NCBI GenBank assembly: GCA_944329365.1
Contig: CALVIC010000001.1
Span: 25,120-89,119, forward strand
Direction of reading: 5' to 3'
Origin: an uncultured Bacilli bacterium
GTDB lineage: Bacteria; Bacillota_I; Bacilli_A; RF39; UBA660
DNA length: 64,000 bases
The translations under genes and the position numbers were made by a program. The notes below the pieces were generated by a model. It had not been told where the DNA came from and searched no databases. It was given only the letters and a program-made list of their open reading frames with translations. Below, piece by piece: positions 1,209-60,441 of the stretch. Within the stretch, counting starts at the first letter, position 1, and every line of letters begins with the position of its first letter.

Positions 1209-2249
1209 ATGGTAAAACCAAGAAAGTTACAAAAAGGCGATACTGTTGCGATTGTAAGTCTTTCAAGTGGAATGGCAGGTGATGATTTATTTAAGCATAG
1301 ATATGAACAAGGTAAAAGAAGACTTGAAGAAGAGTTTGGTTTAAAGGTTGTCACTATGCAAAATGCTTTAAAAGGTAGTGATTATCTTGCAAAACATCCA
1401 GAAGCCCGGGCTGAAGATTTTATGAATGCTATAAAAGATAAAAAAATAAAAGGAATTATATGCAATATTGGTGGGGCTGATACGGTTAGATTACTACCTT
1501 ACATTGATTATGACCTTATAAAAGAAAATCCAAAAGTTTTTATGGGATACTCTGATACAACGGTTAATCATTTTATGATGTATAAAGCTGGAGTTACTTC
1601 ATATTATGGTCCATCGGTGATGGGTGAGTTTGCAGAAAATTATGAAATGCATGATTATACAAAAAAGTATGTTAAAGAAGTGTTATTTCAAAATAAAGAA
1701 AATATTAAAATTTCTTCTAGTCCAGAGTGGACAAGTGAATATTTAGATTGGGCAAATGCTGAATATGATAACGTAAAAAGAAAAATGAATAAGGAAAAAC
1801 ACGGATATGAAGTTTTACAAGGACAAGGTATTTGTGAAGGCGAATTATTGGGTGGATGTTTTGATGTTTTTCCGATGTTTATTGGAACAGATATATGGCC
1901 TAAAAAGGAAGAGTGGAAAAGTAAAATATTGTTTTTAGAAACTAGCGAAGATGAACCAGAACCTGATTATATCGAATATTATTTACGTAATTTAATTGCT
2001 CAAGGTATAATTGATGAGATTAATGGAATTATTGTAGGTAAACCTCAAAATGAAAAATATTATGAAGAATATAAAGAGGTATATAAAAGACTTATTTCTG
2101 AAGAAGCAAACAGGCCTGATTTACCAATTTTATACAATGTTAATATTGGCCATACAGCACCTATGTGCATATTTCCAATGGGACAAAAAGTGAGAGTTGA
2201 TTTAGAAAAAAAAGAAATTGTTTTTCTAGAAAAACCAATGAGTGATTAA
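1209..2249 (+). CDS. LD-carboxypeptidase / S66 peptidase (LdcA/MccF-like)
   Basis: Overall similarity to the S66 family (…GYSDTT… nucleophile region). GGGAG RBS 10 nt upstream of the ATG at 1209. Earlier in-frame ATGs at 1191 and 1194 lack an RBS. Confidence 0.7.
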   Translation: MVKPRKLQKGDTVAIVSLSSGMAGDDLFKHRYEQGKRRLEEEFGLKVVTMQNALKGSDYLAKHPEARAEDFMNAIKDKKIKGIICNIGGADTVRLLPYIDYDLIKENPKVFMGYSDTTVNHFMMYKAGVTSYYGPSVMGEFAENYEMHDYTKKYVKEVLFQNKENIKISSSPEWTSEYLDWANAEYDNVKRKMNKEKHGYEVLQGQGICEGELLGGCFDVFPMFIGTDIWPKKEEWKSKILFLETSEDEPEPDYIEYYLRNLIAQGIIDEINGIIVGKPQNEKYYEEYKEVYKRLISEEANRPDLPILYNVNIGHTAPMCIFPMGQKVRVDLEKKEIVFLEKPMSD

Positions 2250-2353
2250 TTATTGAATTTAAAATAAATGATTTGCTAAAAAAAACTTGTTACAATATGA
2301 TATGAACCGTTTTTTGTTTATAAAGAAAAATTCTATTGTAGAACTAGGAAGAA

Positions 2354-2434
2354 TGTGTTACAATGTATATAGATGAAGGAAACTTCATATAATAAAAAGG
2401 GAGTACTTAAGCATTGCCTAAAGTACTTGCTCAA
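2354..2434 (-). repeat. Composite intergenic repeat, copy 1 (minus orientation). Conserved core is the reverse complement of CCTTTTTTATTATATGAAGTTTCCTTCATCTATATACATTGTAACACA, preceded on the minus strand by the hairpin AGTACTT/AAGTACT.
   Basis: 46/47 nt identical to copy A (50600-50646) in reverse complement. Confidence 0.7.
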
Positions 2435-2763
2435 AAAGTTTTTTTGTTTAAGTACTTAATCTATAAAAGATTGAGTACTATTTTTTTATACATAGAATCA
2501 TTAATGAAACTATTAATAAAATGATGATTATTACTTGAAAAGTAATTAAAAAATCCTTTTTGTTCATAAAACATCAAGTCTCCTTCTATTTGAAGTAGGC
2601 AAGTACTCAAGACAGTTAAAGTATTCCCTAAAGAAAATTATACCAAACATTTGTTTTGTGTGCAAGCACTTTGGACTTTGAAACCAACATGTTTTAAAGT
2701 ATAAATTTATAGCAGTGTCATATAGGTAAGAAAAAATTATTTTAAATTTTTCATTTTTTTATA

Positions 2764-2793
2764 TTGACAAGTGTATGAAAATACACTTATAAT
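2764..2793 (+). promoter_or_regulatory. Sigma-A-type promoter TTGACA-18 nt-TATAAT. The spacer is a perfect 7-4-7 palindrome AGTGTAT-GAAA-ATACACT, a likely operator.
   Basis: TTGACA 2764-2769, palindrome 2770-2787, TATAAT 2788-2793, RBS GATGGTGG, ATG at 2809. Confidence 0.6.
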
Positions 2794-2808
2794 GTAGATG
2801 GTGGTTAT

Positions 2809-3483
2809 ATGGAAGTTAATAATCCAAAATATAGGAATCAAGGTATTCACGTTGTATGTAGTATTTTTACTGTCGACAAAGGAGAGACAAAAGTTTTACT
2901 TATTAGAAGAAAGAATGAACCTTTTAAAGGAATGTGGGCTTTAGTTGGCGGGGCTTTATACAATGATGAAGAGTTAATCGATGGCTTAAAGAGAGAACTT
3001 AAAGAAAAGACTGGAATCGAAAATATTCATTTGGAAATGGCAAATGTTTATAGCAGGATTGATAGATCACCAGTTATGAGAATGGTTGCCATTTCTTATA
3101 TTGGAATAGTTGATAAGAATAAGCTTTCAATTTTAAAAGAGACTTTAAAAACTGTTGATTGTGATTGGTTTCCTTTAGATAGAATTCCGAAACTTGCTTA
3201 TGATCACAATGAAATATTAGAGGATGCGGCAAAGTTACTAAAAGAGAGAATAAAAAAGACAGATATGCTTAGGTATTTATATCCATCTGGATTTACAATG
3301 CCGGAGATTCAAAAGGTTTATGAAAGTATTTTAGGTGTTAGCTTTGATAGAAGAAATTTTAGAAAAAAATTACTTAGTTTAGGTTTTATAAAAGAGACTA
3401 ATAAAACAGAAAGGTTTGAGGGAAAGAAACCCGCTAAGATATATGAGTTTAAAAAACAAAATGAGATAAAAAGTATTTTTTAA
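2809..3483 (+). CDS. NrtR-like transcriptional regulator: N-terminal Nudix domain with a degenerate Nudix box, plus a C-terminal winged-helix domain
   Basis: Nudix fold with box G-x5-E-x7-RELKEKTGI, where the second catalytic Glu is replaced by Lys. The C-terminal part of about 70 aa is basic and helical, the typical architecture of ADP-ribose-sensing NrtR regulators. Confidence 0.6.
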   Translation: MEVNNPKYRNQGIHVVCSIFTVDKGETKVLLIRRKNEPFKGMWALVGGALYNDEELIDGLKRELKEKTGIENIHLEMANVYSRIDRSPVMRMVAISYIGIVDKNKLSILKETLKTVDCDWFPLDRIPKLAYDHNEILEDAAKLLKERIKKTDMLRYLYPSGFTMPEIQKVYESILGVSFDRRNFRKKLLSLGFIKETNKTERFEGKKPAKIYEFKKQNEIKSIF

Positions 3484-3538
3484 CTTTTTTATTCCAGCGT
3501 GAAGTGTAACTTTGTACACATGTATTAAGGAGGATAAA

Positions 3539-4048
3539 ATGTTTGTAGTAGTTAAAAAGAATAGTGATTCCTTAAATATGTTTAAGAGAAAATTTAATGA
3601 TAATTTTAAAGTCTGTGGTGATGTACTTTTAGCTGGTTATGATTATGATATTTATAAGGATGATGATTTAACTTTAGTAATAGATTATGATAGTGAAGAT
3701 TTAAAATTACTAAAATATACGATTATGGAAGGAGCTTGTGAATATAAATTTTGTGATGTAGTACTAAGGTTAAAAAATAAATATGGAAATGATTTTCTAG
3801 GGAAGCTTTCTCGTTATATGAGGTTTTCGGCTGTTATAAGTGATGGGAAACTTTCAGGAGCGGTGTTTACAGAAGGAAATGTTGATTTTAAACTTTTGTA
3901 TAGTAAAGTAGGAAATATGGAAATCTTTTCTGATAGTGAAGATTTAATGAATTATACTGTAAGTGGTTTTAATGATATAATTAAAGTAAATTTTGTTCCT
4001 AATTTTGGAAAAATTGAAAACGGGAAAGTAAAGTCTTTAATTAGATAA
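3539..4048 (+). CDS. hypothetical protein, paralog A of a tandem pair (about 170 aa)
   Basis: AAGGAGG RBS. Shares blocks with the next ORF: M-F-VV-K/R-N, FKV, GYDYD/GWDYD, LV-I-Y, KLS-YM-FSA-v. Confidence 0.6.
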   Translation: MFVVVKKNSDSLNMFKRKFNDNFKVCGDVLLAGYDYDIYKDDDLTLVIDYDSEDLKLLKYTIMEGACEYKFCDVVLRLKNKYGNDFLGKLSRYMRFSAVISDGKLSGAVFTEGNVDFKLLYSKVGNMEIFSDSEDLMNYTVSGFNDIIKVNFVPNFGKIENGKVKSLIR

Positions 4049-4102
4049 TTTTTGTTCTTTAATAAAGTGTAATTTTATACACATAAAACAGAAGAAGAAA
4101 AA

Positions 4103-4624
4103 ATGTTTGCAGTGGTTAGAAGAAATGATTATAGTAAGGAAATCATAAGAAAAAAATTTCGTTATGGAAGATTACAAGATGAGTTTAAAGTTTATGACGA
4201 TATATATGTTTATGGATGGGATTATGATGTTTATGAAATTGATAAGACATTAGTAGTGATTAGTTATAATAGAGATTTATTTTATCTAAAATATGGTAAG
4301 TATGGTGATAGTTCTCGCAGGATTATCAAAAAAATTATTTCAAAAGATAGTGAACTTGGTTTGTTAAAACTTAGTAAATATATGAATTTTTCAGCGGCAG
4401 TTTTAAAAGATAAGTTACTTTGGGGATATTCATACGGAAAAGTTAATGATCATGGATGGCCAGATCTTTGTTATTGTAACTTAGGTGGTAAGGCGGAGAT
4501 GTATGCGGATAATATAGGTTTAACTACAGAATTTTTAGGTAAAGATGATAAATTAGTTTATTTATATAGTAAAAACGGTTTAAATATATATGAAAAAGGT
4601 AAACATAAAGTTTTAAAAAAATAA
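4103..4624 (+). CDS. hypothetical protein, paralog B of the tandem pair
   Basis: Same conserved blocks as 3539..4048 and a similar size. Confidence 0.6.
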   Translation: MFAVVRRNDYSKEIIRKKFRYGRLQDEFKVYDDIYVYGWDYDVYEIDKTLVVISYNRDLFYLKYGKYGDSSRRIIKKIISKDSELGLLKLSKYMNFSAAVLKDKLLWGYSYGKVNDHGWPDLCYCNLGGKAEMYADNIGLTTEFLGKDDKLVYLYSKNGLNIYEKGKHKVLKK

Positions 4625-4642
4625 TTAGAAAGGAAATTAAAA

Positions 4643-5755
4643 ATGAGTTTAGAAAGACAACAAGGTATTATAGATGGAATTAATAAAATAATTTTAGAAG
4701 TTGTTGACGATGCTGCTAAAGAATATGCAAACGATGCTTTTGCTAAAGTGATAAGTGATGAAGAGACTTTGAAAAAAATGATGGATATGTTAAAAAATAA
4801 ACTTTCAGATAAAGTTTCCACAGAACTGGACAGAAAAGTAACTGATTATATTAATAGTAATAATATAGCTTCGAGGTTAACAGATACTGTAATAAATAAA
4901 CTTAAAGATTATGGCTCAGGAACTGTCCCTCTAGTAAAAATTGTTAAGCTCAACGATACGGAGATTGGAAGAAGTGGAAAAGAATATTTTCATAAATCAT
5001 TTGATTCTATTCTTTCTTGTGTATCGTTAGATGATCCGGTTATGTTAGTTGGCCCAGCTGGAAGTGGAAAAAATATAGCAGTTTCCCAAGTGGCAGAAGT
5101 TCTTGGATTAGATTTATATTATACGAATAATGTTTCGAATGAATTTAAACTTACTGGTTTTATAGATGCTGGCGGAAGATATCAAGAAACAGAGTTTTAT
5201 AAAGCATTTAAAAATGGGGGATTATTTTTCTTAGATGAAATTGATGCTTCAGACCCTTCTTCTTTAGTAGTAATAAATTCAGCTTTGGCAAATGATTATA
5301 TGGCTTTTCCGAATGCAACTATCGACAAAAATCCGAAATTTAAATTTATATGTGCGGCTAATACTTTTGGCAAAGGTGGGAATTTGGAATATATTGGAAG
5401 AAATATTTTAGATGCAGCAACTTTAGATAGGTTTGATACAATTTATTTTGATTATGATAGAGATTTAGAGAGGGCGTTATATCCAAATGATGATGTTTTG
5501 AATTTTATGTGGACTTTTAGAGAGGCGGCTGATAATTTGAATATTCATCATATTGTTTCAACAAGGTCAATAGGTAAAGTTTATAAAAAGTATATAAATA
5601 AAATTCCTTGTGAAGAAATATTACTTAGTAATGTAATTAAAGATTTAGGAGAAGATGATTTAGAAATGATGATAGGCAAGATGAGGGAGTTACATAGTTA
5701 TATTGAGTATAATGATTTTTATAAAAAAATTAAAACGCTTAAGTTAGGAAGATAA
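4643..5755 (+). CDS. MoxR/CbbQ/CobS-like AAA+ ATPase (AAA_5 type) with an unusual Walker A, GPAGSGKN
   Basis: Walker A GPAGSGKN (Asn at the Ser/Thr position). Walker B LFFLDEID. Sensor-1 FICAANT. MoxR-type arginine-finger motif ATLDRFD. N-terminal extension of about 140 aa. Confidence 0.7.
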   Translation: MSLERQQGIIDGINKIILEVVDDAAKEYANDAFAKVISDEETLKKMMDMLKNKLSDKVSTELDRKVTDYINSNNIASRLTDTVINKLKDYGSGTVPLVKIVKLNDTEIGRSGKEYFHKSFDSILSCVSLDDPVMLVGPAGSGKNIAVSQVAEVLGLDLYYTNNVSNEFKLTGFIDAGGRYQETEFYKAFKNGGLFFLDEIDASDPSSLVVINSALANDYMAFPNATIDKNPKFKFICAANTFGKGGNLEYIGRNILDAATLDRFDTIYFDYDRDLERALYPNDDVLNFMWTFREAADNLNIHHIVSTRSIGKVYKKYINKIPCEEILLSNVIKDLGEDDLEMMIGKMRELHSYIEYNDFYKKIKTLKLGR

Positions 5756-5783
5756 TACGTATAAATTTGATAAGAAAAATTTT

Positions 5784-6638
5784 ATGATGTTTTACGAATT
5801 TAATTCAATTAATGAATTTTGCAGGTTTATTTTAAATACACCAATTAATTATAGTGTTTTTTCTGAACCGGCAAGTGTTGTTGATTATGAAGAATTTACA
5901 GGGACAAAAAATTTTGAGGAAGCAATTAATCTTTTAAAATACGGAGATAGCTATCAGATTGAAAATTTTAGGTTTTTAAAGAAAAATTTTGATAATCTTT
6001 TGAATAGTAAAATTAATAGAAATCAGGAATTTAATTATTATATAGGTTATGCTCCAAATGTAAAAGCATATTTAGAGGGAAGTCCGCTTAATATGCTTTA
6101 CAAAGAAAGAAGAAAAGAAACAAAAGTTTTAGATATTTATTTTAATTGTTCATGTAGTGCGAAGACAGATATTTTAGCAATTTACAATAGGGGAGCAATT
6201 ACACTTTCTTTTATAGATTATTTGGAACGGATTGGTTATTTTGTTTCTCTTCATTTAACGGAAATGAGTTATGCTTCTCAGGAAAAATTTTATGTAGAGT
6301 TTAATTTGAAAAACTACGGGATGAGGGTAAATATATCAAAGCTTTGTTTTCCGATGTGTCATTCATCATTTCTCCGAAGATGCATTTTTAGACTTCAAGA
6401 AGTTACACCTGATATAACAGAAAAATGGAGATTTGGTTATGGACGTCCTTGTGAGAAAAAAATGATGGATGGATGGCTTAGTGATATTTTTAAGATTAAA
6501 GATAATTATATTATAATTCCAACGCCGCAAGAAATGGGAATAGAAGGAAAAGATATTCAAAGTGACGCTAAAAATTTCTTTAATTATATAGGAAAATATT
6601 ACGATGACCTAACATATCAAAAGGTTAAAAGTAAATAA
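5784..6638 (+). CDS. hypothetical protein, possible partner of the AAA+ ATPase. Contains a degenerate MIDAS-like motif VLDIYFNCSCS and a Cys/His-rich C-terminal part.
   Basis: Co-oriented, 29-bp gap after the ATPase. No recognisable family from sequence alone. Confidence 0.45.
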   Translation: MMFYEFNSINEFCRFILNTPINYSVFSEPASVVDYEEFTGTKNFEEAINLLKYGDSYQIENFRFLKKNFDNLLNSKINRNQEFNYYIGYAPNVKAYLEGSPLNMLYKERRKETKVLDIYFNCSCSAKTDILAIYNRGAITLSFIDYLERIGYFVSLHLTEMSYASQEKFYVEFNLKNYGMRVNISKLCFPMCHSSFLRRCIFRLQEVTPDITEKWRFGYGRPCEKKMMDGWLSDIFKIKDNYIIIPTPQEMGIEGKDIQSDAKNFFNYIGKYYDDLTYQKVKSK

Positions 6639-6724
6639 TTTTCTTTTTAAAGTTGAAGTTTTAGTATTTAAAGAAAAACAAAAGGGACGGTTTAACATTA
6701 TATATTTAGAGAGGAGAATGATAT

Positions 6725-7702
6725 ATGTCAAAATTTAGGTCGTTAACAGAAAATGAAATGAAAGAAATGTCAAAGTATGGGTTTGGAAAGATACCAAAGG
6801 TTACTGATTTTGCTATTTTATCTGGTATTTCAGGCAATTATTTGACAAAAGAAGAATATGATGATTTGGATAGAAGAAGAGAGAAAGATAGGTATCGTTG
6901 GTTACTTTCTTCTGATATTTGTGTTTATCATAGCTATGTTAATGATAAAGGTGAAGTTTTGGAATGGGGCCTTAGTCATTCTTTTCCAGCAGCGGTTGAT
7001 AGAAAGGGCAATATTACTTATGCTATATGTAATGAACCTGGTTACGGAATACGTCCGGTTACTGTTTTGAATGAGGATATTGCGATAGGTGCTAATATTA
7101 TTGACGAAAATATTATGGAAAATGAGAAATTTTTGGTTTTACAATATGGAGAATATATTAGAGATGTAGTAGATGAAGATTTAAACTATTATTTAGATAA
7201 GGAGTTAGATGAAGGAAATATTTTTAAAACTTCTAAAGAATATTATCCATATTGGCGTTATTATGATGAAAAAGAATCCTATTTTAGAAAAAGCACAAAT
7301 AAAAATTTTCAAGAGTATTTATTTAATGGGAAAAAATTTGTAGTTGTTAGAACAAATAAGAACAGTTTGAATATCGGTAATAAATTACATGATGATAGAA
7401 GAATAGAACCTGATAAATCTTATTGGTTAATGGTTGAGCCTATTCAATGGACACTTTATACGGATAATAATTTGATGGTTGCTGATGAGGTTTTACTTTG
7501 TGGTGAAGATAGTAGAGATTGTTTTGGTCATTCTCCATATAGACCTAGATATGATTTTGAGAATAGTGGTAATATGAAGATGGATAATTATTTAAATAAA
7601 GTGTTTGCAAAAGATATTATTCCTAGTAATTCTTTATATAAAAAAGAATTCCCTAGGGATAGAGATAGTTATAAAAAATTAGTTAAGCTTTTAAATAATT
7701 AG
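6725..7702 (+). CDS. hypothetical protein (325 aa, no signal peptide)
   Basis: Long intact ORF in the same operon orientation. Terminator-like hairpin at about 7723-7760. Confidence 0.5.
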   Translation: MSKFRSLTENEMKEMSKYGFGKIPKVTDFAILSGISGNYLTKEEYDDLDRRREKDRYRWLLSSDICVYHSYVNDKGEVLEWGLSHSFPAAVDRKGNITYAICNEPGYGIRPVTVLNEDIAIGANIIDENIMENEKFLVLQYGEYIRDVVDEDLNYYLDKELDEGNIFKTSKEYYPYWRYYDEKESYFRKSTNKNFQEYLFNGKKFVVVRTNKNSLNIGNKLHDDRRIEPDKSYWLMVEPIQWTLYTDNNLMVADEVLLCGEDSRDCFGHSPYRPRYDFENSGNMKMDNYLNKVFAKDIIPSNSLYKKEFPRDRDSYKKLVKLLNN

Positions 7703-7806
7703 ATATAAAAATTTTTAGAAAAAATATGAAGATGGATTTTTAGAAGATTCATCTTTTTATAATGCTTTAATAGAACAAAAAATAATTTTCTTTTTTTAAT
7801 TTTATA

Positions 7807-7859
7807 TTGACACGGTGTCAGAAGAGATATATAACGAGAATGTAATTGACATAATGTCA
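7807..7859 (+). promoter_or_regulatory. Promoter TTGACA-17 nt-TATAAC with two operator-like palindromes: TGACAC-G-GTGTCA (7808-7820) and TGACAT-A-ATGTCA (7847-7859)
   Basis: Perfect 6-1-6 inverted repeats overlapping the -35 box and lying between the -10 box and the RBS of the TetR-family gene. Confidence 0.55.
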
Positions 7860-7871
7860 GGAGATGATTAA

Positions 7872-8474
7872 ATGCACAATGACTTAAGAAAAAATGAAAT
7901 AGTAAATGCTTGTATGAAATTATATGACAAGTATCAGTTTAAAGATATTACGATGAAATTAATTAGTGAGGAAACATCTTTTTCAAGGCCTTCAATTTAC
8001 AATTGTTTTGAAACAAAGGAAGAGATATTTTTAGCTTTATTTGCCAAGGAATATGATGAATGGAGTGATGAGGTTAAAAGTATTTATGATGAAAACGATG
8101 TTCTTTCAAAAGATGAATTTGCGAGAAAGCTTGCTTATTCAATGAAAGATAGAGAAAGGCTTTTAAAATTACTTTCCATGAATATGTATGATTTAGAAGA
8201 AAATAGTAGAATGGAAAGGCTTGTTGAGTTTAAAAAATCATATAAGGAAGCTGTTCATTCAGTGAAGATGTGTTTAGAAAAGTTTTTCCCAGAAATGAGT
8301 GAGGAGAATATTACTGAATTTTTATATTCGTTTTTCCCATTTATGTTTGGCATATATCCTTATACAGTAGTTACAGATAAGCAAAGAGCGGCAATGGAAA
8401 AGGCAGAAGTTAATTATAAATATTATTCTATTTATGATATGGCTTATATGGGAATTAGAAAGTTACTCGGGTGA
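7872..8474 (+). CDS. TetR/AcrR-family transcriptional regulator
   Basis: N-terminal HTH ITMKLISEETSFSRPSIYNCFETKEEIF. Size about 200 aa. Confidence 0.8.
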   Translation: MHNDLRKNEIVNACMKLYDKYQFKDITMKLISEETSFSRPSIYNCFETKEEIFLALFAKEYDEWSDEVKSIYDENDVLSKDEFARKLAYSMKDRERLLKLLSMNMYDLEENSRMERLVEFKKSYKEAVHSVKMCLEKFFPEMSEENITEFLYSFFPFMFGIYPYTVVTDKQRAAMEKAEVNYKYYSIYDMAYMGIRKLLG

Positions 8475-8477
8475 TTT

Positions 8478-8924
8478 ATGAAAAAGATAATATTTATAGT
8501 TTTAGGAATAATTTTATTAATATTTTTAATTTTTGTTTATGCTAGTTTTAAAAATAATAAAGAAGAAGTGGAGGACGAGATGATAATAAGAGTTAGTTCA
8601 GGCGATAATGTTATTACATTTGAACTCAATGATAGCAAGGCGGCTAAAGATTTGTACAGTCAGTTACCACTTGATTTAGAAGTTTCTGATTTTAGTACAA
8701 ATGAAAAAGTTTTTTATCCAGAAAAGTTAGATGCTTCAGATGCCCCATTTGCAAAAGGTGGTAAAGGAGTATTTGCTTATTATGAACCTTGGGGTGATGT
8801 TGTAATGTTTTATGATGATTTTAGTTCAAATAATGATTTGTATGAACTCGGAAAAGTAATTGATGGCGTGGATATGATTGAAAATTTAAGTGGTAATATT
8901 GTAATAGAAAAGGTAGAAGGGTAG
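8478..8924 (+). CDS. membrane-anchored cyclophilin-like fold protein (PF04126-like)
   Basis: N-terminal TM helix followed by a motif pattern (VFYPEKLDA…YYEPWGDVVMFYDDF) typical of the cyclophilin-like family. The gene starts 4 bp after the TetR gene. Confidence 0.55.
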   Translation: MKKIIFIVLGIILLIFLIFVYASFKNNKEEVEDEMIIRVSSGDNVITFELNDSKAAKDLYSQLPLDLEVSDFSTNEKVFYPEKLDASDAPFAKGGKGVFAYYEPWGDVVMFYDDFSSNNDLYELGKVIDGVDMIENLSGNIVIEKVEG

Positions 8925-8932
8925 GAGATATT

Positions 8933-9064
8933 ATGATTACAAAGAAAGCTTTAGAAAATCACGATTCAATTTTTGAAGGGGTTAAATATGCCCCAGCTGG
9001 CGGAACTAAAGAGATAAAAGAGGCGATAGAAAGGATGAATATAAATGAAGACGAGCTTTTATAA
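8933..9064 (+). CDS. small hypothetical protein (43 aa)
   Basis: AGGAG RBS 6 nt upstream of the ATG. Not in the ORF track because it is below the length cut-off. Confidence 0.3.
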   Translation: MITKKALENHDSIFEGVKYAPAGGTKEIKEAIERMNINEDELL

Positions 9065-9160
9065 GAATATTGTAAATATGATAAACGAGACTAAATAGTT
9101 TCGCTTTTTTATTTAAAATTTGTATATTTTGGAATTTTACTATATAATTATGGTGTGGTG

Positions 9161-10084
9161 ATGGGGATGAAAAAATGTGCACTTGTGTGTAATCCTAATA
9201 GTGGACACAATAAAAAGAAGCCGATTATCGAAAAAATGATAGATGTATTAAAAGATTATGATTATGAGACAGAAGTTTATTATACGAAGTATTCTGGTCA
9301 TGCAAAGAAGATTATCATGAGTTTAAAGGACGATATTGATTTAGTTGTATCACTTGGCGGCGATGGAACTTTCAATGAGGTTGTAACAGGTAATTTTAAG
9401 AGACCAAAAAAGCTTCTTTTATCACATATTCCACTTGGAACGACTAATGATTTGGGGGCAATTTTTGGTCTTGGAAAAAATCCAATTACAAATTTAAAAA
9501 TGATCTTAGAAGGTACAGTAAAAGGTATTGATATATGTATGATTAACGATCAACCTTTTGTGTATGTCGCAGGTCTTGGAAAATTTACGGACGTGGCTTA
9601 TAATACGCCAAGAAAACTTAAGAAGAATTTTGGTTATATGGCTTATATGTTTAATGCTTTAAAGTCATTTAATCAGAAGACTCATTTATTTGAGATGAGT
9701 TACGAGATTGATGGAGAAGTTTATACTGGTCTTTATTCTTTTGCTCTTGTTTGTAATGCGAGAAGGATGGCTGGAATAAATGTCTTTCAAGATGTAAAAA
9801 TGGATGATGGAAAGTTTGAAGTTTTATTTTCAAATATTACAGCCAAAAAGGATATTATAAAGAGTTTATATTATTTTAAGGCTAATGGAATTAAAAATGT
9901 TCCAGGATTTTATTTCTTTAGAACTGATAATTTAAAAATTAGACTAAAAGATTATCCAAAAAATAATTGGTGTATAGATGGGGAGAAGCTAAGAGATAGA
10001 AGTTTAATTTTCGACATTAAGATTGTTAAGGGTCTTGAGATGCTTTTACCTAATAAAGAGCTTAAGAATATATTTATATCATAA
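9161..10084 (+). CDS. diacylglycerol kinase-family lipid kinase (DgkB/YegS-like)
   Basis: Catalytic-domain motifs VSLGGDGT and PLGTTND. Start uncertain among GTG 9155, ATG 9161 and ATG 9167. A TATAAT at 9143-9148 suggests a short leader. Confidence 0.7.
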   Translation: MGMKKCALVCNPNSGHNKKKPIIEKMIDVLKDYDYETEVYYTKYSGHAKKIIMSLKDDIDLVVSLGGDGTFNEVVTGNFKRPKKLLLSHIPLGTTNDLGAIFGLGKNPITNLKMILEGTVKGIDICMINDQPFVYVAGLGKFTDVAYNTPRKLKKNFGYMAYMFNALKSFNQKTHLFEMSYEIDGEVYTGLYSFALVCNARRMAGINVFQDVKMDDGKFEVLFSNITAKKDIIKSLYYFKANGIKNVPGFYFFRTDNLKIRLKDYPKNNWCIDGEKLRDRSLIFDIKIVKGLEMLLPNKELKNIFIS

Positions 10085-60366: not shown

Positions 60367-60441
60367 TGGAGGGCCTAGTCGGATTTGAACCAACGCATCA
60401 GGGAGTTGCAGTCCCACGCCTTACCACTTGGCTATAGACCC
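60367..60441 (-). tRNA. tRNA-Cys (anticodon GCA), CCA end encoded
   Basis: Reverse-complement GGGTCTATAGCCAAGTGGTAAGGCGTGGGACTGCAACTCCCTGATGCGTTGGTTCAAATCCGACTAGGCCCTCCA. Acceptor stem pairs GGGTCTA with TAGGCCC. Anticodon loop CUGCAAC. T-arm GGTTCAAATCC. Confidence 0.9.

Follow-up and report, generated by a model that had tools for sequence, protein, structure and literature searches.

Why a regulator of the NrtR type should stand at the head of a set of genes outside NAD metabolism, and how far it belongs together with the atypical AAA+ ATPase encoded downstream, is the question raised by this locus, which we have analysed within a window of 64,000 nucleotides, the whole stretch of DNA under study. 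The explanation that we favour, and to which we give about an even chance of being right, is a two-layer, repressor-controlled operon with an ATPase–VWA-like remodelling cassette. The first layer is constant in the lineage: together with an NrtR/AraR-family repressor it comprises a protein related to DUF6273 and either one or two Ntn proteins that lack the nucleophile. The second is accessory and comprises an AAA_5 ATPase with an invariant GKN motif and its MIDAS-less DUF7192 partner, predicted to be VWA-like. The anatomy of the locus, the homologies, the domain fusions, the statistics and conservation of the operators and the strain polymorphism were observed directly, and the features concerned are:

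2764..2793, plus strand: sigma-70-type consensus promoter, TTGACA and TATAAT 18 nt apart, the spacer being entirely operator 1
2770..2787, no strand assigned: operator 1, AGTGTAT-GAAA-ATACACT, a 7-4-7 inverted repeat with the core GTGTA-N6-TACAC
2809..3483, plus strand: gene 1, NrtR/AraR-family Nudix–winged-helix regulator of 224 aa (Pfam NUDIX and NrtR_WHD), its Nudix box RELKEKTGI degenerate
3503..3520, no strand assigned: operator 2, AGTGTAACTTTGTACACA, core at 3504-3519, centre 28 nt 5' of the p170a ATG
3539..4048, plus strand: p170a, free-standing class-II glutamine-amidotransferase (Ntn) fold, ATG at 3539 after the ribosome-binding site AAGGAGG
4066..4083, no strand assigned: operator 3, AGTGTAATTTTATACACA, core at 4067-4082, centre 29 nt 5' of the p170b ATG
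4103..4624, plus strand: p170b, paralogue of p170a, in the place of the fused N-domain of long-form ATPases
4637..6701, plus strand: ATPase–DUF7192 cassette, present in some strains of the species and absent from others
4643..5755, plus strand: AAA_5 (MoxR/CobS/Midasin-type) ATPase, short form, 370 aa (Pfam AAA_5, phrog_249, PDB)
5784..6638, plus strand: DUF7192 protein of 284 aa, predicted divergent VWA-like fold, MIDAS motif absent
6725..7702, plus strand: p325, fast-evolving, distant DUF6273 relative, member of the constant nrtR–p170–p325 core

The operon consists of six co-oriented open reading frames on the plus strand (2809-7702) separated by gaps of 55, 54, 18, 28 and 86 nt, in agreement with the preliminary description of co-oriented genes with short gaps. 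No terminator-like site was found between 2479 and 9086, and a scan of the surroundings of operators 2 and 3 gave no convincing promoter. The promoter of gene 1 has both its boxes (TTGACA 2764-2769, TATAAT 2788-2793) matching the consensus at 12 of 12 positions, with the top score within 2200-9200, and for nrtR a leader of just some 8 nt is predicted. The inverted repeat AGTGTATGAAAATACACT constitutes the full 18-nt spacer, and thus lies exactly between the -35 and -10 boxes as had been claimed; what had been called a perfect 18-bp palindrome actually has 7-bp arms flanking a non-palindromic GAAA centre. The same promoter–operator layout is present in orthologue loci L087 and L091. Pfam analysis of the operon detected no NAD genes, so that the absence of NAD-salvage genes downstream stands, and equally no ARG, Macro, TIR, SIR2 or other NAD/ADPr enzymes. 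Overall, the earlier sequence observations are partly confirmed, holding with the corrections given here, and the interpretation put on them is supported in part.

The NrtR architecture assigned to gene 1 is evident from matches to Pfam NUDIX (4.5e-15, residues 16-138) and NrtR_WHD (4.8e-20, residues 157-214) and from PDB matches that span both domains; its Nudix box is indeed degenerate, as previously noted, reading G48-x5-E-x7-RELKEKTGI with Lys67 in place of the second Glu of the EE pair. Like Shewanella SoNrtR (PDB 3GZ5; PMC2330246), the regulator begins with a Nudix-like domain whose box is degenerate and ends in a winged helix of the NrtR type, and it shares with the NrtR family a putative palindromic operator overlapping its own promoter, by analogy with which it would probably act as a repressor released by a small ligand. 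On the other hand, similarity to SoNrtR amounts to only ~77 bits (1.3e-20), the score against the NCBIfam equivalog NF050029 is 136 bits, below the cut-off of 400, the downstream genes include no NAD gene, and the equivalent of Arg98, an ADP-ribose contact in SoNrtR, is Val89. The closest solved relative is BtAraR from B. thetaiotaomicron (PDB 5BS6; PMC4666351; 34% identity over 202 residues, E 1.7e-40), and the residues contacting ribose or arabinose, Arg34, Arg86 and His131/His133, are conserved in the window regulator. In contrast to BtAraR, the arabinose-specificity positions F36, F49, V92 and F129 are here N, A, M and Y, arabinose genes are absent nearby and the phylum is another.

These comparisons bear on the reading that an ADP-ribose-sensing NrtR turns on a MoxR–VWA chaperone module upon NAD breakdown, as a response to NAD-depleting stress or to phages. 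The NrtR family does provide a precedent for ADP-ribose as effector (PMC2330246), and Nudix–HTH regulators have been predicted to govern conflict systems in which vWA chaperones take part (PMC9503650, section 3.8); however, the closest solved relative senses arabinose and the SoNrtR Arg98 has become Val, so that ADP-ribose as the effector here, a matter of family precedent only, appears weakened. Moreover, the orthologous regulators head an AAA_28 (NadR-kinase-like) gene, a thymidine kinase or a radical-SAM/dCTP-deaminase cluster: regulator and cargo are thus largely apart in relatives, which the preliminary description had itself named as refuting its reading, and the ATPase–DUF7192 pair is found, with no NrtR, in ~65 other genomes. 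The link between regulator and cassette is therefore lineage-specific and confined to this species group. The promoter and operator of an NrtR-family regulator are seen here reused before unrelated cargo, which cautions against reading 'NrtR' as 'NAD regulon'.

Two additional copies of the operator, located before p170a and p170b, had been overlooked. The exact core GTGTA-N6-TACAC occurs at three sites in 64 kb, all intergenic, where 0.02 are expected, and none of 100 shuffled sequences reached three core sites; the previously suggested tie between regulator and downstream genes is supported through the two extra predicted operators. The core spacing corresponds to GT-N8-AC in a 16-18-bp repeat, different from the typical NrtR operator of 21 bp with a GT-N7-AC core (PMC2330246), the latter spacing being the one found in orthologue L091. 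Among strains, operator 1 varies to TACGCT in L008 and to AGCGTA..TACGCT in L010, and operator 2 has one mismatch in L081 and reads AGTGTAATTTTGTACGC in L107. Operator 1 is kept 5' of nrtR orthologues and occupies the same position in the promoter spacer at 58-61% identity, an arrangement which supports the assignment of the regulator as a putative operator-in-promoter repressor.

The same repeats may be viewed as structural RNA or DNA hairpins, that is, as transcript-stabilising or processing elements and not as protein operators. Site 1 would form a 7-bp stem closed by a GAAA tetraloop, one arm position goes from T-A through T-G to C-G between strains, which is a classic compensatory path, and sites 2 and 3 lie within transcribed intergenic spacers. 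Nevertheless, site 1 sits between the -35 and -10 boxes and would be outside the mRNA because it is upstream of the predicted transcription start, and its promoter position is maintained in the 58-61% orthologues despite incomplete arm complementarity (GTGTA..TACGC) or other spacing. Considering also that an Rfam search with the repeats gave no match and that dimeric NrtR proteins as a rule have operators of palindromic form (PMC2330246, PMC4666351), we regard hairpins as extremely unlikely and treat the three sites as putative operators.

The two genes following the regulator encode paralogues of ~170 aa, as proposed earlier, with 34% identity (E 4e-13). The p170 proteins have the Ntn alpha-beta-beta-alpha fold of the AsnB/GlmS/PurF type and lack its N-terminal Cys nucleophile, p170a starting with MFVVV and p170b with MFAVV. 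This loss is common to inactive AsnB-type N-terminal domains (CarA, beta-lactam synthetase; Pfam DUF3700), from which the Ntn domain under study differs in that it comes without a synthetase, being either free-standing or joined to an AAA+ ATPase by a helical linker. It had also been overlooked that the ATPases of this family have a p170 homologue as their N-terminal domain: the homology is detected against the N-domains of ~580-aa ATPases (HMM E down to 1.5e-6), which themselves match Pfam DUF3700 and GATase_7. In the fused forms ~8-10 residues precede FIAY, with no conserved Cys, Ser or Thr among them, and in four loci (L038, L047, L049, L059) two N-domains and the ATPase make up one polypeptide, collinear with p170a–p170b–ATPase. 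The p170 proteins are free-standing versions of a domain which, in most relatives, forms the N-terminal part of the ATPase itself.

The ATPase itself comprises a helical N-terminal linker, a Walker A motif GPAGSGKN and a Walker B motif FFLDEID. Its earlier assignment as MoxR/CbbQ-like was correct: PF07728 (AAA_5) is matched at 1.3e-11 over the full profile and phrog_249 at 1.8e-54, the PDB matches are Midasin, CobS, NorQ and CbbQ, and the Walker A motif is found at residue 137. The canonical form GxxGxGK[S/T] is absent from the window ATPase and from its 120 close homologues, as GKN is present in 120 of these 120 and in the phage copies as well (GGAGSGKN, GRAGSGKN). Replacement of Ser/Thr by Asn in Walker A could leave hydrolysis altered or absent. 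Taken to its limit, this would make the ATPase a pseudo-enzyme in which, the Mg-coordinating Ser/Thr having become Asn, nucleotide is bound as a scaffold or switch and does not drive a motor, a view consistent with GKN throughout the family members examined, phage copies included. However, FFLDEID and the remaining AAA_5 core are strictly conserved across the family, which argues for a working active site, and Mg2+ coordination by an Asn side chain would still be feasible; a pseudo-enzyme is in our opinion very unlikely.

For the adjoining DUF7192 protein, which lacks a MIDAS motif, a divergent VWA-like fold is predicted, and structural comparison places it closest to the MIDAS domain of Midasin and the VWA domain of NorD. 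The metal site DxSxS...T...D is absent: regarding the degenerate MIDAS-like NxSxS noted earlier, the Asn (N121, at the Asp position) is conserved, but both Ser of NCSCS vary across homologues. Likewise, the protein cannot be termed Cys/His-rich, as it contains 7 Cys and 2 His, and of these the family retains just C192 and H193 without exception. The gene begins at the ATG at 5784 solely because the ancestral start at 5757 reads ACG in this strain.

Compared with NorQ/NorD, CbbQ/CbbO, RavA/ViaA, CobS/CobT and Midasin/Rea1, the locus is alike in that an AAA_5 ATPase gene adjoins that of a predicted VWA-fold partner, and by analogy a chaperone-like remodelling would be the expected activity. It departs from these MoxR–VWA pairs in having GKN instead of GK[ST], a partner without DxSxS...T...D, an Ntn-fold domain carried by or accompanying the ATPase, and no client enzyme gene nearby. 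Phage MoxR–vWA pairs (group 2.2 jumbo phages; PMC7824862) are similarly phage-borne AAA+/VWA combinations with a proposed chaperone role, the pair of Acidianus two-tailed virus acting in tail assembly (PMC7824862); the present family (GKN, DUF7192) is a different one, has no metallopeptidase and, in Kayvirus, is located in an early-type gene block rather than among structural genes. The operon core is thus a further variety of the MoxR–VWA pair, and a formerly undescribed variant; the literature search returned no paper on the ATPase–DUF7192 pair.

Of 69 genome loci ~65 have the two genes side by side, as do 236 records of Staphylococcus phages, and metagenomes contain over 2,000 sequence clusters of the pair. 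Its carriers are gut Bacilli, Eggerthellaceae and Clostridia as well as virulent Firmicutes phages including Kayvirus, and most such relatives have the Ntn-like domain fused once or twice to the ATPase N-terminus. Many bacteria of the human and animal gut thus have the pair, and so do the Kayvirus phages employed in Staphylococcus therapy. Within the species, sister strains L081, L082 and L107 have only regulator, p170 and p325, the last directly after p170, and the cassette junction lies in similar RBS-like segments of ~16 nt. Signs of decay are the change of the DUF7192 start from ATG to ACG and the p170b of L008, broken into 82 and 110 aa. The ATPase–DUF7192 pair is a self-contained module and, in this species, a dispensable add-on.

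From this it may be argued that the genes are merely juxtaposed, the regulator controlling itself, p170 and p325, with the cassette as a phage-derived or horizontally moving insertion that is now decaying; strains without the cassette, the clean junction in RBS-like repeats, the lost start codon and the occurrence of the pair elsewhere without NrtR, also in lytic phages, are all consistent with it. But p170 shares homology with precisely the domain found fused to this ATPase in relatives, p170b stands exactly at that domain's place, and neither a terminator nor a strong promoter lies between the genes. Since p170 corresponds to the ATPase's own detached domain, a random landing beside it is improbable, and we consider mere juxtaposition unlikely.

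The cassette also bears on the stress or defence reading introduced above. In its favour, the cassette is strain-variable, p170 and p325 evolve fast relative to NrtR, and the pair is also found in phages. The ARG-centred predicted anti-ADP-ribosylation systems (Iyer et al. 2022, PMC9503650) likewise have a Nudix–HTH negative regulator heading a vWA-chaperone operon and a module content that differs among close genomes. However, the domains that define those systems or serve as effectors (ARG, phosphatase, Macro, NADAR, nuclease) are absent here, the operon encodes no TIR, SIR2 or other NAD/ADPr enzyme, and the Kayvirus phages bearing the pair have no NrtR-like genes. In PADLOC-DB v2 no match was obtained for p170a, p170b, DUF7192 and p325, the best for the ATPase (E 0.016) was not significant and the regulator had a generic Nudix match only; matches among the neighbours numbered five, equal to their ABC-transporter Pfam matches, and we take them for generic hits to ABC ATPases. 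In ~40 genomes the pair lies among housekeeping genes such as FolD, ABC-F and GlmS, with no enrichment of defence or mobile genes. We regard a NAD-stress or defence module as quite improbable.

For the two-layer operon, we infer repression, effector, contacts between the parts, ATPase activity and client along the following lines. Repressor dimers would hold the three operators and block the promoter, until a ribose- or sugar-containing effector, for which ADP-ribose has family precedent, frees the repressor; the Ntn-like proteins may then serve as ligand- or client-binding adaptors of an ATPase–VWA-like complex that would spend ATP to remodel or load a client, like other MoxR–VWA pairs. As p170 and p325 persist without ATPase and DUF7192 in the three cassette-less strains, the adaptor role would not be obligatory. 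Weighing against this scheme are also the restriction of the regulator link to this species group, the decay of the cassette, the want of a convincing promoter at operators 2 and 3, the short nrtR leader and the Asn of Walker A. A bolder proposal, to which we assign a small chance, is that Ntn-like domain, GKN ATPase and MIDAS-less VWA-like protein form an undescribed, widespread three-part machine, common to virulent Firmicutes phages, Kayvirus among them, and to gut Bacilli, Eggerthellaceae and Clostridia, in which an Ntn sensor of small molecules or peptides would gate the ATPase; here it would be detached, duplicated and placed under a ribose-nucleotide-sensing repressor, and it may serve one party where phage and host compete for a shared cellular target. 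Biochemical handles are offered by the Ntn-like domain, whether fused or split, by the P-loop with its invariant GKN and by the partner without metal site, and control through three operators would make one member inducible and therefore tractable.

The remaining core member, p325, had no Pfam match of its own. A phmmer search yielded 390 remote homologues, and DUF6273 (PF19789) was found in 3 of the 10 scanned (E 2e-7, 8e-6 and 9e-3). In L107, p325 is 75% identical, as against 98% for NrtR.

The stretch at window positions 2764-7702 holds six genes, all co-oriented, whose intergenic gaps measure, in gene order, 55, 54, 18, 28 and 86 nt, and no terminator-like site was found within 2479-9086.

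Genes of the operon (window coordinates, strand, identity)
2809-3483, forward strand, NrtR-like regulator of the NrtR/AraR family
3539-4048, forward strand, p170a, first of two proteins of roughly 170 aa
4103-4624, forward strand, p170b, the second of these proteins
4643-5755, forward strand, AAA_5 ATPase
5784-6638, forward strand, DUF7192 protein
6725-7702, forward strand, p325, the last gene

The operon is flanked upstream by an LD-carboxypeptidase-like gene and downstream by genes for TetR, a cyclophilin-like protein, DAG kinase and RNase J, and these flanks, among which is also a cysteine desulfurase-like gene, are ordinary chromosomal or housekeeping ones. In view of these housekeeping flanks, the lack of an integrase and neighbour Pfam counts with no mobile-element enrichment, the idea that the window holds a prophage or a mobile island was rejected. 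Contigs near-identical to the window come from animal and human gut metagenomes, and the related genomes are mainly those of uncultured gut Bacilli, 'Tenericutes' being a frequent label. The intergenic stretch at 2250-2763 is unusually long (about 510 bp), has no Rfam match and contains a terminator-like hairpin (2451-2479), with AAGTACTT-type repeats in its arms at 2421, 2450 and 2473.

The conserved unit is the ATPase–DUF7192 pair: when one genome per species was scanned, 69 loci emerged, from gut Bacilli, Eggerthellaceae and Clostridia among others, and the two genes are adjacent in about 65 of them, usually with the ATPase first. Kayvirus phages carry the pair in the same order (A3R gp046/gp045; phage K ORF14 and its neighbour), and a DUF7192 search of phages matched 240 records, 236 being Staphylococcus phages. 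The pair is reversed in one Enterococcus phage, DUF7192 preceding the ATPase; the protein downstream of that ATPase was dropped as a DUF7192 homologue, having 19% identity while the real DUF7192 lies upstream. A conserved third partner of the pair was rejected, as clustering of 1,280 neighbouring ORFs revealed clade-level synteny only (FolD, ABC-F, GlmS), and weak matches of a p170 HMM to the FolD-like cluster lying upstream proved non-significant when tested again. FolD, ABC-F and GlmS also lead the Pfam tally of 144 proteins flanking the pair, among which neither defence nor mobile genes are enriched. Together with PADLOC scans of the six operon proteins and these 144 neighbours, which returned nothing specific, this leaves the link to defence raised in the preliminary description unsupported. 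NrtR, p170 and p325 genes stand next to the pair in the window's own species only; in a related locus (L037), a single distant NrtR-like gene is found on the downstream side of the pair. An NrtR–pair link in phages was likewise rejected, NrtR-like genes being present in 31 phage records, none of which is from a Kayvirus. In a related gut genome (L004:8181-10894), a short-form ATPase (304 aa, without the N-domain) and DUF7192 are preceded by an AraC/GyrI-like regulator in place of NrtR, with an RNase J gene nearby, as in the window.

The ATPase belongs to AAA_5 over the full profile (1.3e-11) and to phrog_249, the phage 'CobS-like' family (1.8e-54), its weak PDB relatives being Midasin, CobS, NorQ and CbbQ. 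The atypical Walker A motif noticed earlier, GPAGSGKN, was confirmed and is not a local oddity. Its Asn recurs in 120/120 close homologues as well as in the copies from Staphylococcus, Enterococcus and Clostridium phages, and the sole exception, with GKS, belongs to a second, divergent ATPase–DUF7192 pair in one locus (L043:13714-15588). Walker B (FFLDEID) is conserved too. The 284-aa DUF7192 protein, with a predicted divergent VWA-like fold, had been described as Cys/His-rich, which does not hold (7 Cys and 2 His), and as having a degenerate MIDAS-like motif; the MIDAS is in fact absent, only Asn121 being kept, at the Asp position. Family-invariant residues include R136, G137, C192, H193, R198, R199, E206 and D261. 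The ancestral DUF7192 start (window 5757-5759), 1 nt past the ATPase stop and preceded by an AGGAAG ribosome-binding site, is ACG in the window and ATG in three sister contigs (L008, L010, L011), the start remaining in the window being the ATG at 5784, with a poor ribosome-binding site. In another locus (L072:10001-11700) two DUF7192 genes stand in tandem.

That p170a and p170b are paralogues was borne out (34% identity, E 4e-13), and neither matches Pfam, PHROG, NCBIfam or PADLOC. Most sequences homologous to the neighbouring ATPase are about 580 aa long, versus 370 in the window, and are extended at the N-terminus by some 210 residues; an HMM with p170a and p170b as its only sequences, searched against a library of about 1,000 proteins, matches precisely this extension in some 30 long ATPases (E down to 1.5e-6), with motifs in common along the whole length of the alignment. 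These N-domains match DUF3700 in 13 of 36 cases (best E 5.9e-7) and GATase_7 in 8 of 36, and PF12481 stands in the precomputed annotation of several long-form ATPases. The N-domain profile found nothing among PDB sequences, and the Ntn (class-II amidotransferase) fold is predicted from the Pfam matches of relatives and from structure prediction. In four genomes (L038, L047, L049, L059) two N-domains are followed by the ATPase in a single polypeptide, and because this order is collinear with p170a–p170b–ATPase in the window, we take it as Rosetta-stone evidence that the p170 proteins would work with the ATPase. An extra free-standing Ntn-like N-domain gene (216-aa ORF) is located downstream of the pair in L053, and in a same-species metagenome contig (L008:1454-1976) p170b is broken into ORFs of 82 and 110 aa, by a frameshift or an assembly error.

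The NrtR architecture proposed for the first gene was recovered (Pfam NUDIX 4.5e-15, NrtR_WHD 4.8e-20), as was its degenerate Nudix box, G48-x5-E-x7-RELKEKTGI, with Lys in place of the second Glu of the EE pair; the protein scores far under the NCBI equivalog cut-off for NrtR (136 vs 400 bits). Its promoter, a perfect TTGACA-18-TATAAT, is the top match within 7 kb and has the 18-nt spacer AGTGTATGAAAATACACT. The 18-bp palindrome does lie between the -35 and -10 boxes as described, but it is not perfect, since 7-bp arms flank a GAAA centre. Between the end of the -10 box and the ATG there are 15 nt (window 2794-2811), and therefore the mRNA leader would be only about 8 nt long, beginning at the GGTGG ribosome-binding site; in the orthologous locus L087 the leader is about 30 nt, versus the 8 nt or so predicted here. 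A search beyond the promoter, earlier suggested as a means to define a regulon, gave exactly three exact matches of the core GTGTA-N6-TACAC in the 64-kb window (2771-2786, 3504-3519 and 4067-4082), with a chance expectation of 0.02 and no shuffle reaching three; the two additional cores are both inside the operon, in the spacers preceding p170a and p170b, and allowing one mismatch added no further site in the window. At each predicted operator the distance from site centre to start codon is 28-31 nt. Operators of the NrtR family are palindromic, commonly of a 21-bp GT-N7-AC form (PMC2330246); those of the window are likewise palindromic but do not exactly match this form. Orthologous regulators with 58-61% identity, which come from human gut and other metagenomes, retain this element within the spacer of their own TTGACA/TATAAT-type promoter, which reads TTGACA-AGTGTATAAAAGTACGCA-TATAAT in L087 and has a 17-nt spacer with GT-N7-AC geometry in L091.

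The repeats might instead be hairpins, and a weak argument for this is the symmetric variation of site 1 among strains that share a 100% identical regulator: across window 2770-2787, L008:120-137 and L010:251-268 we find ..GTGTA..TACAC.., ..GTGTA..TACGC.. and ..GCGTA..TACGC.., a series that resembles compensatory change and is odd for a protein operator. However, the position of site 1 within the promoter spacer favours a protein operator over a hairpin. A structured RNA in 2200-4700 was rejected, Rfam giving no hit at thresholds as loose as E 1.

As for the effector of this putative repressor, the nearest relative with a solved structure is the arabinose sensor BtAraR (5BS6; E 1.7e-40, 34% identity), and the ADP-ribose sensor SoNrtR is more distant (3GZ5; E 1.3e-20). 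Residues were mapped in BtAraR numbering, a mapping which reproduced the published residues. The sugar contacts common to both sensors (Arg34, Arg86, His131) are conserved, whereas the arabinose-specific hydrophobic residues of BtAraR are not, and Val89 stands at the place of SoNrtR Arg98, an ADP-ribose contact. The ligand likely contains ribose or a sugar; ADP-ribose is possible but unproven as the effector, and the NAD/ADP-ribose idea for the operon as a whole is unsupported.

Comparison of strains indicates that the link of the regulator to the pair is local and that the cassette is dispensable. In L081 and L082, of the same species, whose NrtR is 99% identical, and in L107, where it is 98% identical, the operon consists of nrtR, one p170 gene and p325; nrtR and p170 are each preceded by an operator, and both ATPase and DUF7192 are absent. 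In a DNA alignment the additional sequence of the window falls at 3550-4064, the p170a body, bounded by operator-RBS segments that are duplicated, and at 4637-6701, the ATPase–DUF7192 cassette, bounded by RBS-like segments of roughly 16 nt that resemble each other. The identity of p170 and p325 falls to 75% where NrtR holds 98%. Because p170 and p325 persist without the cassette, and given the marks of decay, these data show that the ATPase layer is optional in the window's lineage. The separation of regulator and downstream genes, which would speak against their association, is largely seen: where orthologous regulators have this promoter-operator, the genes behind them are different ones, being AAA_28, thymidine kinase with AAA_28, or a radical-SAM-containing cluster. 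In L087:7708-8823 and L094:7662-9376 this is a 371-aa AAA_28 protein (NadR-kinase-like) with an extra C-terminal domain, whose gene overlaps the preceding one and in L094 is preceded by thymidine kinase; in L091:7732-11037 and L095 the regulator is followed by a P-loop protein, a radical-SAM protein, two tandem dCTP-deaminase-like proteins and a histidine phosphatase, which looks like a nucleotide-modifying cluster. With respect to p325, no family is matched directly, a word-indexed search gave only two close relatives, and exhaustive phmmer gave 390 remote ones, with DUF6273 in 3 of 10 scanned; its distant homologues occur in unrelated gene contexts.

From this anatomy and from family precedent, the operon would be held off by dimers of the repressor bound at the three operators, and a ribose-containing metabolite would free them. 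The fusions suggest that the Ntn-like proteins may be modules through which the ATPase binds a ligand or client. Judging from the conserved pairing and the fold, the ATPase may remodel or load a client together with the VWA-like DUF7192, in the manner of NorQ/NorD, CbbQ/CbbO, RavA/ViaA and CobS/CobT; no client candidate is encoded near the operon. Each part is of a known kind (NrtR-family regulator, AAA_5/MoxR-type ATPase, VWA-like partner, inactive Ntn domain), and there is no evidence for an unusual mechanism. The combination of an Ntn domain that is either fused with the ATPase or split off as a separate protein, an invariant GKN P-loop and a MIDAS-less partner, in gut bacteria and virulent Firmicutes phages alike, is not described in the literature searched. 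This literature contained no papers on DUF7192 and mentioned DUF3700 in plant proteomics lists only, and conflict-system surveys discussing MoxR–vWA say nothing of a partner with an amidotransferase fold. Nudix–HTH regulators are predicted to head operons with vWA chaperones in ARG-centred systems (PMC9503650), whose defining ARG enzyme is absent from the window operon. The ATPase–DUF7192 module is widespread, unstudied and tractable.

Downstream of the operon, between the cyclophilin-like gene and DAG kinase, a strain-level indel sets window 8924-9155 apart from L008:6280-7929 and L011:4340-6640, which have carboxymuconolactone-decarboxylase-like and flavodoxin-like reductase genes, and in L011 also an amidohydrolase, that the window lacks. 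Unrelated to the operon, the window also contains a T-box leader (56564-56762, forward strand; 128 bits) and a tRNA gene (60370-60441, reverse strand).
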